From positions 1,248 to 65,247 of the forward strand of contig CAZECW010000193.1 in assembly GCA_964510585.1 (NCBI GenBank): a DNA stretch of 64,000 bases. The letters are read 5' to 3'. The stretch's first letter is position 1. Every line of letters starts with the position of its first letter. The position numbers were made by a program, and so were the translations under genes. The DNA is from an uncultured archaeon (GTDB lineage: Archaea; Asgardarchaeota; Jordiarchaeia; Jordiarchaeales; Jordiarchaeaceae). A model generated the notes under the pieces. That model saw only the letters and a program-made list of their open reading frames with translations. It was not told where the DNA came from and did no database searches. This document shows positions 3,638 through 53,440 of the stretch, in pieces.

Positions 3638-4162
3638 GTTTTACTTAAATCTTTCGGGAAAAAGTCTGCATAAAAACAGTTGCTGGATTGTGTAAGCTAT
3701 CCTAATTTTGGTATATAATCTCAACTTAGTGGAGTTATCCATAATGTTCTAGTAACTTATTTGATCTATGTGTACTTCTTATATGTCCTCAAGGCTTGGG
3801 AGTGTGCAAATTGGGGGGAATGGGATGTTGGGAATATTTCTCATTCTTTGGTTAAAGGTGGCAAATTCTTCAACTGCTTCTCGTTTTAGGACTTGTTTAG
3901 GTGTAGAACTCCTATGTCTCATTGGGCCAATAAACTATGCTTCACTGAGTCTATAGAAAAAAGGAATGCTTGTTATGTTGTGCGAAGATTCATCAGATAA
4001 CCTTTATATTTAAACAAAGGATTCTGTTACTTGGAAAATGGATGTAACCTTTAAGAGTGGGTGAGGAGAAAAAACTTGCTGCGGGTTTGGGGGCGAGAAA
4101 AGTCATGGAGTAGAGCGTTTCACGTGTTTCAGTTTGGAATCTATTCCTCTAAGTAAGGAAGG

Positions 4163-5341
4163 TTGATGGTTATGGAAACTCTTAGAATAGCATTCTTCTG
4201 CTGGGAGTCCCTTTATTCTGTGAGAGTGGGAGGGCTGGCTATGGCAGCTACTAATCTCGCTGAAAGTATTGGGAGGGAACATGAGGTTCACTACTTTACA
4301 CCGGGTTTGAAAGATCAGAAGAAGACAACCGAAAAGCAGGGGGTTTTTTACCATCGTTGCTGGCCCTCTGGGTCAAACATAGTTGATTACTGTAAAAATA
4401 TGAGTCTAAAAATGGTGGAGGACTATTTAGCCGAAGAAAAGAATGGAGATTTTGACGTTCTCCACTTCCATGACTGGCATCCTACTGAAGCATTGCACCT
4501 CCTTCAGAATCGATCAACTGTCCTAACTTTTCATTCGACGGAATACGGTAGAAATGGAAACAATTTTGGAGGCTGGTGGGAGTTTAAAGAAATTTCTGGT
4601 AAAGAATGGTACGCCGCTCTCATATGCAAAAAGATTACAACAATTTCTCAGGCTTTAAGGAAGGAGGCTATGTGGCTCTACAACATTCCAGATTGGAAGA
4701 TTAAAGTCATCCCAAATGGAATAGAGCCTGAAAAATTTCACATGAATGTTGATGCAGCTAAGGTGAAAAAAGATTACGGCGTAAACCCTCAAGAACCTCT
4801 GGTGTTCTACATGGGAAGGCTAGTTTACCAGAAAGGACCAGACTTACTTCTTCAAGCTGTTCCAAAAATTCTGGAACACCATAAAAACGCAAAATTCCTC
4901 TTTGCAGGAGATGGGGATATGCGTTCCTACCTAGAAGGCTTGTCAAATAACTTTGGAGGACGCGTAAGATTTTTGGGCTATCTCCCAGACATGGAATTCG
5001 TTAGGCTACTCAACTCAGTGGATTTAGTGACTATCCCCAGCAGAAACGAGCCCTTCGGTCTGGTCTTGCTGGAGGCATGGAGCGCCCAAAAAGGCGTTGT
5101 AGCAACGGAAGTTGGAGGGCTCTCAGAAAACATAGACAACTTTGTAGATGGAGTTAAAGTCTATGTGAATCCCGAATCCATTGCTTGGGGAGTAAACTAT
5201 TGTCTAGACGACCTCGAAGCCACCAAAAATATGGGAAAAAAGGGGTGGGGGAAGCTTGGCAAATTCAGATGGGAAAACATTGCAAAAGAAATGGTGGAAT
5301 ACTATAAAAGTCAACCAGAAACCGTCACAAAAAATCAATAA
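4163..5341 (+). CDS. Glycosyltransferase family 4 (GT-B, glycogen-synthase-like)
   Basis: N-terminal Rossmann-like region (RIAFFCWESLYSVRVGGLAMAATNLAESI). C-terminal E-X7-E-like region NEPFGLVLLEAWSAQKGVVATEVGGLSE. Confidence 0.7.
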   Translation: MMVMETLRIAFFCWESLYSVRVGGLAMAATNLAESIGREHEVHYFTPGLKDQKKTTEKQGVFYHRCWPSGSNIVDYCKNMSLKMVEDYLAEEKNGDFDVLHFHDWHPTEALHLLQNRSTVLTFHSTEYGRNGNNFGGWWEFKEISGKEWYAALICKKITTISQALRKEAMWLYNIPDWKIKVIPNGIEPEKFHMNVDAAKVKKDYGVNPQEPLVFYMGRLVYQKGPDLLLQAVPKILEHHKNAKFLFAGDGDMRSYLEGLSNNFGGRVRFLGYLPDMEFVRLLNSVDLVTIPSRNEPFGLVLLEAWSAQKGVVATEVGGLSENIDNFVDGVKVYVNPESIAWGVNYCLDDLEATKNMGKKGWGKLGKFRWENIAKEMVEYYKSQPETVTKNQ

Positions 5342-5371
5342 AAGTGTAATTCTACAATTTTTTCGAGTTCT

Positions 5372-6163
5372 CTAATGGAATTCTACGCCTCCATCAATGT
5401 TAATCGATTGGCCAGTCATATAGTCCGAATCAGTTGATGCCAGAAAAGCAGCAAGCGGAGCCACATCATCCGCGGTTCCCAACCTTCCCCTAAGAATTTC
5501 TGGAGCCTTAAAAGTCTTCATACTTTCCCTAACCACCTCTTCACTATTAAGATAGATGCCTGTCACATGGAAACCGGGACAAATGGCATTCACAGTTATG
5601 TCGGGAGCCAACTCCTTCGCCAAAACTTGGGTTAAAGCTATCACTCCGAATTTGCTCACTGAGTAGGCACCTATGTGGGGAACCGCTGTTTTACCCGCTA
5701 TGGAAGCAATGTTAATTATTTTTCCCCTCAGTTCCCCAAACTTTTTCTCCTGTTTCAGCATTCTTATGGCAGCAAATTTTGAGCAAAGCCAAGCACCCTT
5801 AACATTAGTATTCATAACGCGATCCCAATCTTCCTCGGTCTGCTCAATGAGAATATAAGGGAGGCCACTTATGCCAGCGTTATTAACTAGAATGTCTAGT
5901 CTTCCCCACTCATCGTAAACTTTTTCAATCATTGCCTCCACTTCGGCTGATTTTCCCACATCGGCTCGGATAACCATAACTCTTCTCCCTAGTTTTTCTA
6001 TCATCTTCGCAGTCTCATTTGCTCCTTCCAAATTTACGTCGTTAACAACAATGTCTGCTCCTTCCTTAGCATACCGCACACTAATTGCTCTGCCAATGCC
6101 AGAACCGCTCCCAGTAACTAGGGCTATCCTACCACCCAATCTCTGTTCCGAAAACTCTTTCAA
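5372..6163 (-). CDS. Short-chain dehydrogenase/reductase (FabG-like 3-oxoacyl reductase family)
   Basis: TGSGSGIGRA NAD(P)-binding motif, NNAG, and a catalytic S…YSVSK segment. The likely real start is the TTG at 6161-6163, 5 nt after GGAGGTG; the ORF-track ATG at 6181 appears to be embedded in that RBS. Confidence 0.8.
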   Translation of the reverse strand: MKEFSEQRLGGRIALVTGSGSGIGRAISVRYAKEGADIVVNDVNLEGANETAKMIEKLGRRVMVIRADVGKSAEVEAMIEKVYDEWGRLDILVNNAGISGLPYILIEQTEEDWDRVMNTNVKGAWLCSKFAAIRMLKQEKKFGELRGKIINIASIAGKTAVPHIGAYSVSKFGVIALTQVLAKELAPDITVNAICPGFHVTGIYLNSEEVVRESMKTFKAPEILRGRLGTADDVAPLAAFLASTDSDYMTGQSINIDGGVEFH

Positions 6164-21590: not shown

Positions 21591-22069
21591 ACCAGATACC
21601 CCAAGTAAAAGCGATAACTCAAATAGCTAATTGGAGGGAGAGTAACGTGAACGTTTTTGAACGATACGAACTCCTATATTAAAATTTTATGTATGGATTG
21701 CGTTGTTGCATAATTTTATTTTTTTTCAATTTATTTAATATATTTTGATGAATTTTTTGCAATTTCACATTGTTAATCTGAAAAAAATTAGGAGTATTAA
21801 ATAAATCCATTCGAAAAAGTAAAATTGTGCAACAAAGCAGTATGGATTAAAAAACACTTTATGGATTGCTTCAAACTTAAAACAGTAGGATAAATTATCA
21901 TTTTTCTCGTTATTGAAAAGTGATAAAATTGCAAAAAAACTTATATTGATAATCGAATATAACAGGTTATCAAAAAGAGAAGAAGAGGAAAACCCCTAAA
22001 GGAAGAGGCAAAGTAGGGGGCCTCAGTCGGCAATAAGGAACTTATTATGATTCAAATTATGAATGAGAA

Positions 22070-41283: not shown

Positions 41284-42225
41284 TTACCCTTTTTCGCCGT
41301 TCAAGTCGAGAAGGTTCTCAATACCTTTACGGGCCACCAGGTCTATGTCACTCTTAACCTTAAGAAGAGTCGAAAGGAGAGAGTTAACAGTATCCGGATC
41401 CAACTCACTTTTACCGATAGCTATGAGAGATCTGGCGAAGTCAATGGACTCCGCAATGGAGGGAACCTTTTGCAGCCTCATGCTTCGCAGATTCTCCACA
41501 AAACTCAATATATTATCCACAAATTCATCATACAGCTGGGGACAGTTGAGAAGTATAATCCTTTTTTCCAAATCCCTTGGGGGATAGTCCAAGTAGAGGT
41601 GTAAGCACCGCCTTTTCAAAGGCTCAGACAATTCCCTCGAACTATTAGAAGTCAGCACAGTAATAAGTTTCTGGTTCGGAGGAGCCCTCACGGTTCCCAA
41701 TTCCGGAATCGTGATTTGCCGCTCGCCAAGGAGTTCAAGAAGGAAGGCTTCGAATTGCTCGTCGGCCTTATCAATCTCATCTATGAGAAGCACCGCTTCA
41801 GGAGACTTTAAAGCGGTTAACAAGGGGCGTTCCAAGAGGTACTCCTCAGAAAAAATTGATTTTTCACCCCCATCATTACCTTTAAGATGGTTCATCTGAA
41901 TCCTGAGAAGCTGCTTATGATAGTTCCACTCATAAATTGATTGTTCAGGAAGAATCCCCTCATAGCACTGAAGCCTAATCAGCGGAAAGCCAAACAGCTT
42001 CGCGGTGCAAACACCCAGATAGGTTTTACCGCAACCCGCAGGACCCTCCACCAGAATCGGCTTATCAAGCTGGAAAGCCAGAAAAAGAGTGGTAACTACC
42101 TTCCGATTAGGCAAATAACCGACACTCACAAGTCCATCTTCAATATCCTTAGGCTTAAGCCTCACTGGATTTTCCAAAAGTTCTCTCGGAAGCAAACCCG
42201 CCATAAATCCCACCAACAGAACCAA
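41284..42225 (-). CDS. MoxR/CoxD-family AAA+ ATPase
   Basis: Walker A GPAGCGKT; Walker B LLIDEIDKA; …LLELLGERQITIPELG… MoxR signature. Confidence 0.85.
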   Translation of the reverse strand: MVLLVGFMAGLLPRELLENPVRLKPKDIEDGLVSVGYLPNRKVVTTLFLAFQLDKPILVEGPAGCGKTYLGVCTAKLFGFPLIRLQCYEGILPEQSIYEWNYHKQLLRIQMNHLKGNDGGEKSIFSEEYLLERPLLTALKSPEAVLLIDEIDKADEQFEAFLLELLGERQITIPELGTVRAPPNQKLITVLTSNSSRELSEPLKRRCLHLYLDYPPRDLEKRIILLNCPQLYDEFVDNILSFVENLRSMRLQKVPSIAESIDFARSLIAIGKSELDPDTVNSLLSTLLKVKSDIDLVARKGIENLLDLNGEKG

Positions 42226-51817: not shown

Positions 51818-52093
51818 ACATCTCCTGCCAAAACGTCTAAAACCTATCCTACAAATACGGTCGCCCTTTCTCTATTATGCCAAACTAGATTAGGATTTCT
51901 GTTTCCAAGATAAAAACTGGCAAAAGCTACCTTCCCTTAAAAAAAGGCGAGAGGAAGGAAGCAATAGGAGCAATGAAGCCAAACCAAAGCTAAGCGCTCC
52001 CACGTTTTTCCAAAATTGTTTTTTGCTTTTCAATATTTTTTTAAGTTTTGATGACACTTGCTTAACTAGCGTAGTTTAATTACGCTAAAATAA

Positions 52094-53164
52094 TGGAGGT
52101 GTAAAGGCCTGGAAGACTATAGGTTAACGAAGGCAGTAACTCTTTATGGATGATCCTGTAAATTGCCTCAAACCAAGCTTCTGAATCTCTTGGAAAAAGT
52201 GGGCGTTAAAAAGGATCCCTCAGGCAGAGTTGTAGGAGGAATCGGAGAAGACGCAGCGGTCATAAAAATTCAAAAAGATTTGGTGCTCATAGAAACTGTG
52301 GACTTCATAACCCCCAACGTTGACGACCCCTACATTCAAGGCAAAATAGCTGCTGTAAACGTTACCAATGATGTGTACAATGTAAATCATAATGATTTAC
52401 ATGCATAAGCCATAGGTGGAACCGACGTGGTGAGCTTTCTTGCAATACTGGGAATTCCTGAGAACATGCCCCTCAAGATGGCTGAGGAGATGTTACGGGG
52501 GATAAACGACTTGATAAGTGAGTTGGGCACCACAACCATTACTGGGGGACACACCATAATAAACCCTTGGCCCCTAGTGGGAGGCGTAGCCTCAGGAATA
52601 GCCCACCCAGACCAGATAGTAACTCACAAAGATGCGCAGCCCGGCGACATACTCATACTCACCAAACCCTTAGGCACACAACCCGCAATGGCTGTCTACA
52701 GAGGATTACGAGACCCCGCCGTGGCAGAACAAATCCTGAAGTTGGTTTCTCGAAAGGAAGCAGAAGAAATGGTTGAAAAAGGAATTAAATTGATGACCAC
52801 CTCAAATAAACCCGTGGCTGAGGTCATGAGGGTGGTTAAACCCCACGCTTCCACCGATGTCACAGGCTTCGGCTTACTCGGCCACACCCAGGGAATAGCG
52901 GAAAGCAGCAAAGTAGACATCACCATTCATACCCTACCCATCATTAAAGGCACCTTACAAATTTCGGATCTCTTTGGCTACGGCCTGCAATCTGGAGAAT
53001 CAGCAGAGACCGCTGGCGGCATGATTCTCTTTGTCCCAAGTGATTTAAAGGAAAATTTGGAACACGAACTTGACAGGAGATCTGTAACCCATTACGAGAT
53101 AGGAAAAACTAGTAAAGGGTCAGGAAAAGTAGACTTCAGCAAGGCAGAAATACTTGAAGTTTAA
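52094..53164 (+). CDS. selD: Selenophosphate synthetase (selenide, water dikinase), with in-frame TGA (Sec) at 52151-52153. No canonical start codon. Interrupted at 52381-52410 by a 30-bp palindromic insertion containing TAA, so possibly a pseudogene
   Basis: Frame after the TAA at 52091: WRCKGLEDYRLTKAVTLYG-[TGA]-SCKLPQTKLLNLLEKVG… matches the E. coli SelD N-terminus [25 protein letters not shown], with TGA at the Cys17 (Sec) position. Continues …DAAVIKI…LVLIETVDFITPNVDDPYIQGKIAAVNVTNDVY | NVNHNDLHA* | AIGGTDVVSFLAILG…GGHTII…PGDILILTKPLGT… (AIR-synthase-related fold). There is no ATG/GTG/TTG between the TAA and the TGA. The only candidate start is CTG at 52109, 7 nt after GGAGGTG. Confidence 0.7.
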
Positions 53165-53174
53165 AGCGGCAGTA

Positions 53175-53214
53175 ATGACCTGCAGACAAAACCCTTCATG
53201 GAGGTCTGCGGGGA
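53175..53214 (+). promoter_or_regulatory. Candidate SECIS-like RNA element (AUGA - 9-bp helix - AAAA apical loop - helix - GA), 11 nt after the selD stop
   Basis: ATGA(53175-78) CCTGCAGAC(53179-87) AAAAcccttcatggag GTCTGCGGG(53204-12) GA(53213-14). Nine consecutive pairs including one G-U. This is the eukaryote-type kink-turn quartet geometry (AUGA … GA), with unpaired A's immediately after the helix. Confidence 0.35.
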
Positions 53215-53304
53215 ACATTCCGCCTAGCAAGGTTGGTGCCGCCCCTACAAACTAATTAGTTTCCACACTGGTAGAAGCTTGAAGGAGCATTCCCCCTTCG
53301 TGGG

Positions 53305-53440
53305 TGTTGTTTTCAAATTTTTTATTCCTTTTCCGGGTCCAAACAGGCATTTTTCTGTGCTTCAAAAGCCGATTTGCGGCTTAAAACAACATTTTTCCTG
53401 CTTCCCGAAAATTTTCCACAATAGGTAGCTAGGCTGGCTG
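53305..53440. repeat. Intergenic repeat element, copy B (see 49886..50005)
   Basis: Core identity about 50/63, with similar flanks. Located ~270 nt upstream of nuoJ, comparable to copy A's distance from gcvH. Confidence 0.6.

Follow-up and report, generated by a model that had tools for sequence, protein, structure and literature searches.

A Putative SECIS with a Predicted Kink-Turn Core Downstream of a selD Gene with a Predicted Intron in a Jordarchaeia/Freyarchaeia Archaeon

Introduction

How might a UGA codon within selD, the selenophosphate synthetase gene of an uncultured Asgard archaeon, be decoded as selenocysteine (Sec), and how might the same reading frame continue past an in-frame TAA further downstream? 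Both questions are raised by a 64,000-nucleotide (nt) stretch of DNA, hereafter the window (GenBank assembly GCA_964510585.1, contig CAZECW010000193.1, positions 1,248 to 65,247 of the forward strand), in which a stable hairpin lies just past the stop codon of selD. A preliminary description of this stretch had proposed that the hairpin is a eukaryote-type selenocysteine insertion sequence (SECIS) element built around a kink-turn (K-turn). The analysis reported here indicates that the hairpin is very probably the SECIS of a selenoprotein-type selD messenger RNA (mRNA) in a Jordarchaeia/Freyarchaeia archaeon, and that this mRNA carries a predicted bulge-helix-bulge (BHB) intron inside its open reading frame (ORF).

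The SECIS elements of Asgard archaea have been proposed as a link between archaeal and eukaryotic Sec decoding, and it has been proposed that the ancestral eukaryotic SECIS was carried by SelD, the one selenoprotein family held in common with eukaryotes (PMC11227280). The precedent invoked in the preliminary description, a eukaryote-like SECIS in Lokiarchaeota, was apt, as earlier work describes eukaryote-like elements, in general terms, from Jordarchaeia and Freyarchaeia (PMC9723677, PMC11291895); the Jordarchaeia selenoproteins listed in the first of these sources are HdrA, Prx, and MvhD only (PMC9723677). The kind of element is therefore already known in Asgard archaea, and this particular selD element appears not to have been catalogued: within the available supplement of PMC11227280, no match was found to four Jordarchaeia-type SelD peptide strings or to a Jordarchaeia selD accession or isolate name.

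The Hairpin Downstream of selD

The gene is laid out as follows.

52109 to 52378, plus strand: selD exon 1, which holds the Sec codon (basis: translation, start-codon comparison across loci, and frame check)
52151 to 52153, plus strand: in-frame UGA predicted from the homologue alignment to be read as selenocysteine (YG-U-SCK)
52409 to 53164, plus strand: selD exon 2, closed by the stop codon TAA 53162-53164

In translation, UGA 52151-52153 sits in the selD motif YG-U-SCKLPQ, and the residue aligned with it is Cys in Cys-type SelD and, throughout the Jordarchaeia-type loci, U; this would be the codon that a SECIS recodes. The nearest relatives of the C-terminal 245 amino acids (aa) of SelD come from Jordarchaeia/Freyarchaeota metagenome-assembled genomes, at 93-96% identity.

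Ten nucleotides separate the selD TAA from AUGA (53175-53178), the first base of which is the 11th nt past the stop codon. AUGA leads into a 9-bp helix formed by CCUGCAGAC (53179-53187) and GUCUGCGGG (53204-53212), with no mismatch and a sole wobble, U53181.G53210; GA 53177-53178 adjoins this helix on its 5′ side and GA 53213-53214 on its 3′ side. The apical loop AAAACCCUUCAUGGAG (53188-53203) is 16 nt long, with AAAA at its start and AG at its end.

53179 to 53187, plus strand: upper helix (helix II), 5′ strand CCUGCAGAC (RNAalifold, fold, and named-structure test)
53204 to 53212, plus strand: upper helix, 3′ strand GUCUGCGGG (RNAalifold, fold, and named-structure test)
53188 to 53203, plus strand: apical region, with AAAA 53188-91, a CC/GG ministem 53193-94 × 53200-01 (minimum free energy (MFE) fold), and a terminal AG

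The ministem counts 2 bp in the window and 3 bp in six relatives (L001, L003, L028, L030, L032, and L033). The preliminary description had already pointed to AUGA eleven nt after the stop, to the 9-bp helix with one G-U pair, to the flanking GA, and to the unpaired A's that open the apical loop (AAAA 53188-91), all of which are read directly from the sequence. It had also called the 3′ untranslated region (UTR) GC-rich, and the GC content of 53180-53299 is indeed 52.5%, vs. 32-37% in flanking intergenic DNA. The RNA folding that it had recommended as a check came out in favor of a structured element: the 40-nt hairpin has a folding energy of -17.2 kcal/mol (z = -3.6), and none of 200 shuffled sequences was as stable.

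An arrangement of this kind is seldom expected by chance. The window was scanned with a strict pattern consisting of ATGA, a perfect stem of 8-12 bp with at most one G.U, a loop of 8-20 nt starting with AA, and GA, and the element after selD was the single match on both strands of the 64 kb; across 300 dinucleotide-preserving shuffles, the mean was 0.007 matches per window, and only one of the 300 contained any match.

Conservation and Association with Selenoprotein Genes

The comparative set comprised 12 distinct Jordarchaeia-type selD loci, whose SelD proteins are 52-96% identical, together with a Lokiarchaeia-type (L040), a Borrarchaeum (L041), and a Hodarchaeota (L042) locus. The relatives were drawn from a protein database and contig look-ups, and a SelD metagenome scan gave only distant Bathyarchaeia-type loci. 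In all 15 of these Sec-type Asgard selD loci, a succession of RUGA, helix, (N)AAA loop, and GA starts 3-15 nt past the stop codon, the outcome that the preliminary description had sought from orthologous 3′ UTRs. The helix is built from two unrelated sequence families, the 5′ strand being C/U-rich in the window's clade (CCUGCAGAC or UCUGGGGAU) and G-rich in the deeper clade ((A)GGAGGAGG, (A)GGGAAAGG, and similar), and both families stay paired. The same shape is obtained when each locus is folded alone.

Covariation was assessed on alignments that were made without reference to the structure. Applied to a sequence-only MAFFT alignment, RNAalifold recovers the helix and a second hairpin, and 9 of the 12 predicted pairs are compensatory. 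On a second MAFFT alignment, restricted to the window's clade and Borrarchaeum, the named three-way-junction structure described below is 93.7% paired, vs. 39-54% in slid registers, and contains eight compensatory pairs; its covariation score is reached by 0 of 500 shuffles. A model-based alignment (A2) was set aside because the deep Jordarchaeia clade, which has an extra A before GA, was offset by one column along the 3′ strand; its place was taken by a hand-segmented table checked against the sequences and by the second MAFFT alignment of the closer clade.

The element follows the type of selD gene. A covariance model (R1) built on Jordarchaeia sequences picks up the Borrarchaeum selD element, on which it was not trained, with E = 2.4e-5, and finds no match in Cys-type selD loci. 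Likewise, an ungapped pattern scan recognizes 12 of the 15 Sec-type Asgard selD elements (the stems of the other three are bulged and were recognized by eye) and none among 16 Cys-type Bathyarchaeia selD genes. It is this association with Sec-type genes that points to a SECIS role, and it is the one line of evidence that the element directs Sec insertion.

The association extends beyond selD. A Jordarchaeia-like contig (L043), reached from the Jordarchaeia HdrA in the supplement of PMC11227280 via 89%-identical fragments, carries similar elements after hdrA (5337-5425, between hdrA and frhD) and after frhD (5866-5955), which answers the call of the preliminary description for evidence from other selenoprotein genes. 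Both hairpins read AUGA-U, 8 bp, a (C/U)GAAA or GUAAA loop, and GA, and each forms part of a three-way junction, completed by a closing helix of its own and by a further hairpin that resembles the second hairpin of selD (loops AAGCG and AUAAGCG). With one element each, hdrA and frhD of this contig differ from their Lokiarchaeota counterparts, for which one common element, 3′ of frhD/vhuD, has been reported.

A Predicted K-Turn Core Within a Three-Way Junction

The sequences that surround the upper helix form a larger structure.

53166 to 53171, plus strand: closing helix P1, 5′ strand GCGGCA, pairing with 53237-53242 (MFE folds)
53172 to 53178, plus strand: K-turn 5′ side, with C-stem GU 53172-73, 3-nt bulge AAU 53174-76, and GA 53177-78
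53213 to 53216, plus strand: K-turn 3′ side, with GA 53213-14 and C-stem AC 53215-16
53220 to 53236, plus strand: second hairpin (hp2), CCGCCU-AGCAA-GGUUGG, with GCA in its loop at 53227-29
53237 to 53242, plus strand: P1, 3′ strand UGCCGC (MFE folds)

At the sequence level, the window carries the K-turn signature 5′ GU-[AAU]-GA ... GA-AC 3′, and the deeper clade the equivalent 5′ GG(U/C)-[GAU/AAU/CGU]-GA ... (A)GA-(A/G)CC. Among the 15 loci, the C-stem pair that borders the 3-nt bulge is U-A, C-G, or U.G, and the following G-C pair is invariant. A covarying C-stem, a 3-nt bulge, and tandem G.A pairs fit a K-turn architecture, with a kinked geometry predicted for the core, in agreement with the kink-turn of the preliminary description; the covarying C-stem is comparative evidence for such an architecture of the core. 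The core resembles the K-turn and k-junction motifs of box C/D RNAs and Kt-7, which bind L7Ae, in its C-stem, 3-nt bulge, and tandem sheared G.A pairs, and differs from box C/D K-turns in being without guide RNA architecture.

The K-turn hairpin, hp2, and the closing P1 together make up a three-way junction, in which the C-stem runs into P1 (in the window's clade) and hp2 lies on the 3′ strand, between the C-stem and P1. This third helix enters on the non-bulged strand, an arrangement that we take to resemble a k-junction. P1 (6 bp) is paired in 98% of alignment cells and shows two compensatory pairs against Borrarchaeum. An hp2 was found in every selD locus examined; its stems vary and yet remain complementary (CCGCCU/GGUUGG, CCAUCC/GGAUGG, CCACCC/GGGUGG, CCCAC/GUGGG, and GUGUC/GGCAU), GCA is present in the loop throughout, and GC occurs in all of the loops AGCAA, UGCAA, CGCAA, AGCA, and AAGCG. 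It is quite possible, though we would stop short of calling it probable, that the Sec signal of selD in Jordarchaeia and other Asgard archaea is a three-way junction and not a simple two-helix, eukaryote-like hairpin. No description of hp2 or of the junction was found in the available text, figures aside, of PMC11227280 or PMC4989117, and the published models, to the extent that these sources present them, do not describe a conserved hp2 and closing helix.

Comparison with Known SECIS Families

Among described elements, the closest counterpart is the eSECIS-like model of Asgard archaea (Huang, Xiao and Zhang, 2024, PMC11227280), with which the selD element agrees at every point stated in the available text. 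This model calls for an upper stem that is 7-15 bp long and has no more than two mismatches, and distinguishes type II elements (ministem of 2-8 bp, bulge of 4-12 nt, apical loop of 2-6 nt) from type I elements (apical loop of 8-20 nt), those of Asgard selD genes being reported as mostly type II (PMC11227280). In the window, GA 53177-78 and GA 53213-14 flank the helix as a GA_GA core, the upper stem has 9 bp with no mismatch and one G.U, and the gene context is that of the model: the element lies in the 3′ UTR, and a UGA occupies the known Sec position of SelD. The apical region can be read as type II, with a CC/GG ministem of 2 bp (the minimum), 7 unpaired nt (AAAAC and AG), and the 5-nt loop UUCAU; its 16 nt taken as one loop would fit type I too. 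The likeness to eSECIS-like type II thus covers the 3′ UTR location, the GA_GA core preceded by AU, the 9-bp stem, the unpaired A's, the ministem, the small apical loop, and the gene itself. Unlike the model, which comprises the core, the upper stem, and the apical region only, the element holds hp2 on the 3′ side of what would be its "internal loop" and is closed by P1 (PMC11227280).

Many of the same features recur in the lokiSECIS (Mariotti et al., 2016, PMC4989117), described as AUGA, a 9-bp stem, a loop whose first five nt are A-rich and which ends in AG, and then GA (or AA). AUGA, 9 bp, AAAAC, the loop-end AG, and GA are all found in the window. The extra stem in the apical region is a likeness to the lokiSECIS variant of selenophosphate synthetase (SPS) genes, for which, unlike the 9 bp kept by the window element, a shorter main stem has been described (PMC4989117). 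The lineage differs as well, the host being assigned to Jordarchaeia/Freyarchaeia and not to Lokiarchaeia.

With the eukaryotic SECIS (RF00031; type II as in SEPHS2), the element shares the AUGA...GA non-Watson-Crick quartet, a helix II, unpaired A's, a ministem, the 3′ UTR location, and a presumed K-turn-like geometry, and it differs in having a shorter helix II and an additional hairpin that separates the core from the lower helix. The eukaryote-type character claimed in the preliminary description therefore stands as regards the Asgard eSECIS-like model (PMC11227280) and most features of the lokiSECIS, and falls short at the Rfam family SECIS_1, which gave no match. Its further claim, that the GAA_A internal loop of canonical archaeal SECIS elements is missing, was borne out: a search of 53141-53360, which called for a lower stem of 5 bp or more, found none. 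Relative to the euryarchaeal SECIS of Methanococcus and Methanopyrus, with its GAA_A asymmetric bulge, GC-rich lower stem, and short upper stem, the window element has an AUGA_GA core, and what the two have in common is the 3′ UTR location, GC-rich stems, and a role in an archaeal Sec system.

A Predicted BHB Intron Inside selD

The second question raised by the locus concerns the in-frame TAA at 52406-08, which lies within an insert that has the features of an archaeal BHB intron.

52379 to 52408, plus strand: predicted BHB intron of 30 nt, with an in-frame TAA at 52406-08; the BHB motif spans 52373-52409 and is conserved in 12 loci with covariation
52373 to 52376 × 52403 to 52406, plus strand: central helix H, GUGU × GCAU, 4 bp
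52377 to 52379 and 52407 to 52409, plus strand: bulges ACA and AAG, 3 nt each
52380 to 52388 × 52394 to 52402, plus strand: inner helix h′, 9 bp

All 12 Jordarchaeia-type selD loci carry an insert of 30, 31, or 34 nt at the identical codon boundary, between NDVY and AIGG. In a MAFFT alignment of these 12 loci, pairing holds in 97.4% of the cells, compensatory changes affect 7 of the 9 h′ pairs, both variable pairs of H remain paired, and 0 of 500 shuffles match this result. A BHB motif is defined by a pair of 3-nt bulges with a 4-bp helix between them, together with the inner helix h′. No conserved pairing was found outside H where the outer helix h of the strict hBHBh′ form would lie, so the motif is of the relaxed HBh′ form. 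A cut between the second and third nucleotide of each bulge, which is the cleavage rule of the cbf5 intron (PMC2738675), joins the exon frames (NDVY|AIGG) in 12 of the 12 loci, those with 31- and 34-nt inserts included, and the spliced SelD aligns without gaps to uninterrupted SelD and to human SEPHS1. In all likelihood, the selD mRNA must first be spliced at this ORF-internal intron, although splicing is a matter of inference.

Relaxed BHB forms are reported to require a broad-specificity EndA splicing endonuclease, and Asgard archaea have been reported with an (alpha-beta)2 EndA (PMC5829648); in Freyarchaeia, introns have been reported in 92-95% of tRNA genes (PMC11291895). The selD intron resembles that of the Crenarchaeota cbf5 pre-mRNA (Watanabe, 2002; Yokobori, 2009, PMC2738675), which is likewise short, located in an ORF, of relaxed BHB form, subject to the same predicted cut, and found in hosts whose lineage has an (alpha-beta)2 EndA of broad specificity (PMC5829648). 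It differs from the cbf5 intron in its gene, in its Asgard host phylum, in its length of 30-34 nt, and in being known here from sequence alone. A 2020 paper that describes a BHB intron in a 5′ UTR names cbf5 as the sole further mRNA for which such an intron had been reported (PMC7714728), and no published report of a selD intron was found in the literature searched. If the present reading is true, selD would be, within that literature, the second gene family with an ORF-interrupting BHB intron in archaea after cbf5, and the first Asgard case.

Two other accounts of the interruption were considered and rejected. Translational bypass (hopping) was discarded as the take-off and landing codons are unmatched, UAC facing UAA, UAG, or CAA. 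A SelD split into two subunits was discarded as well, since the conserved peptide AIGGTD / AKGATE... lies upstream of any start of a second ORF and yet shows synonymous-site variation.

The predicted intron has consequences for annotation. Gene callers give two separate ORFs for each Jordarchaeia-type selD examined, and these split gene calls may explain why SPS is missing from the Jordarchaeia selenoproteins of PMC9723677. On the occurrence of further introns in the window, a generic BHB scan was uninformative, being unspecific (82 matches vs. about 65 in shuffles).

Weighing the SECIS Assignment

Several observations weigh against a SECIS. To our knowledge, no Asgard SECIS has been tested by experiment so far, and we know of no binding factor. 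The comparison draws on a small set of 15 loci that cluster phylogenetically. Two Bathyarchaeia-type selD genes with UGA at the Sec position, L005 and L019 (1386-1500), are without the AUGA...GA motif, so another signal must exist there. Whereas the hairpin itself is stabler than shuffles, the whole 151-nt 3′ UTR is not (z = -0.75). The apical region, with 16 nt, departs from the 11 nt of the standard (non-SPS) lokiSECIS (PMC4989117), and its ministem is only 2 bp in the window. Rfam matched no family in the whole window at the gathering threshold; RF00031 SECIS_1 in particular was matched neither at that threshold nor at E<=10, whether on 801 nt, where five chance-level matches were obtained and none overlapped the element, or on 111 nt, where there were no matches at all, so that by covariance model the element is not a member of the eukaryotic SECIS_1 family. 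Unlike in eukaryotic SECIS systems, moreover, SBP2 has been reported as absent from archaea (PMC4989117, PMC9723677).

As an observation on the Bathyarchaeia-type genes themselves, L005 has directly 3′ of its stop codon, at 3736-3790, a GC-rich two-stem hairpin, AGCCC-AA-GAUUAC-CGGG-GUAAUC-AAGG-GGGCU, which may be a SECIS of a different kind.

What else could the hairpin after selD be? A K-turn might be bound by L7Ae or a paralogue without any relation to Sec, either for translational or stability control of selD or as a box C/D-like small RNA within the 3′ UTR. The signature of the core is a generic one, as a C-stem, a 3-nt bulge, and GA.AG are the arrangement recognized by L7Ae; we know of no SECIS-specific protein in archaea; and GUGAUGA, the 5′ side as found in the deeper Jordarchaeia clade (L035, L036), matches the box C consensus perfectly. 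This explanation is nonetheless unlikely. The element is without a D′/C′ pair and leaves no room for a guide, the 34 nt between AUGA and GA being a closed hairpin, and Rfam finds no small nucleolar RNA there; it tracks Sec-type genes, is absent after Cys-type selD, and recurs after hdrA and frhD, both of them selenoprotein genes; and its conserved unpaired A's are a signature of SECIS and not of box C/D.

The position directly 3′ of the stop codon, the GC-richness, and the stability of the hairpin would also suit a generic 3′-end structure, be it a transcription terminator or an mRNA-stabilizing hairpin. We regard this as very unlikely, since no U-tract stands behind the hairpin (a T-rich tract follows about 95 nt on, at 53308), the unpaired AUGA, AAA, GA, and the GCA of the hp2 loop, which a simple stability hairpin would not need, are kept while the stems change, and the element is absent from Cys-type orthologues. 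Least probable of all, to the point of being scarcely credible, is a chance match in a pseudogene, in which selD would be broken by the TAA at 52406-08 and the 3′ element would be a relic. Such an idea could draw on the gene calls, which show selD as two ORFs both here and in all relatives (the homologues P0001-P0017 are 232-250 aa long); against it, the interruption is a conserved predicted BHB intron, the removal of which brings the two exons back into one frame at each of the 12 loci, protein-level constraint persists in both exons, and the chance expectation of the motif is about 0.007 per window.

Possible Mechanism and Significance

If the hairpin acts as a SECIS, the kinked core and the A-rich loop would be recognized on the mRNA by the archaeal Sec elongation factor itself or, alternatively, by a K-turn-binding adaptor of the L7Ae type; the elongation factor would deliver Sec-tRNASec to a ribosome arriving at UGA 52151, which would then be decoded as selenocysteine and not as a stop. 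The distance to be bridged from UGA 52151 to the element is about 1.0 kb, or 994 nt in the spliced mRNA.

The locus adds a covariation-supported example to the Jordarchaeia/Freyarchaeia SECIS elements. Should hp2 prove to be required, it would be the docking site for an archaeal SECIS-binding factor, and the three-way junction would constitute a distinct SECIS subclass; hp2 and P1 are concrete mutational targets in the hunt for such a factor.

Further Features of the Window

No further selenoprotein genes were found in the 64-kb window. ORFs that run past a TGA were examined as candidates and turned out to be ordinary adjacent genes or non-coding frames. Weaker matches to the hairpin pattern at 22063, 60857, and 41528 (minus strand) lie in ORFs or at a start codon, contain mismatches or many G.U pairs, and were treated as chance. 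A weak match to the selD-SECIS covariance model was noted at 41780-41884 on the minus strand (16.6 bits, E of about 0.06 by rough calibration); it is situated inside an ORF and is probably due to chance as well. Neither Rfam at its gathering threshold nor ARAGORN detected a tRNA gene in the 64 kb. Freyarchaeia tRNA genes have been reported with multiple introns at non-canonical positions, and tRNA genes so rich in introns could have been missed in the window.

53308 to 53334, plus strand: T-rich tract, read from the sequence

This tract is likely an archaeal transcription stop, a role inferred only, and would place the element inside the selD 3′ UTR. Between the two, the 3′ UTR contains another folded, GC-rich segment (53243-53305) with a perfect 14-nt palindrome, AAACTAATTAGTTT, at 53250-53263, which is kept in L001 and L002 and not in more distant relatives.

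At the other end of the gene, the window's clade has no in-frame ATG, GTG, or TTG between the upstream stops and the Sec codon. A conserved CTG at 52109-52111 lies 7 nt past GGAGGTG (52095-52101), which resembles a Shine-Dalgarno sequence; since no other in-frame start is available and this CTG is conserved at that spacing, CUG at 52109 is probably the selD start. In L031 and L032, a TAA stands two codons upstream of the selD CTG, and L002 has an indel just upstream; the deeper Jordarchaeia clade has TTA at the CTG position and an ATG four codons downstream. Just 5′ of the ribosome-binding site, an inverted repeat, UAGCGUA...UACGCUA, occupies 52067-52087. A similar hairpin, GCGUAG/CUACGC, is found in the same region of L001-L003, and the repeat may be a structure of the 5′ UTR.

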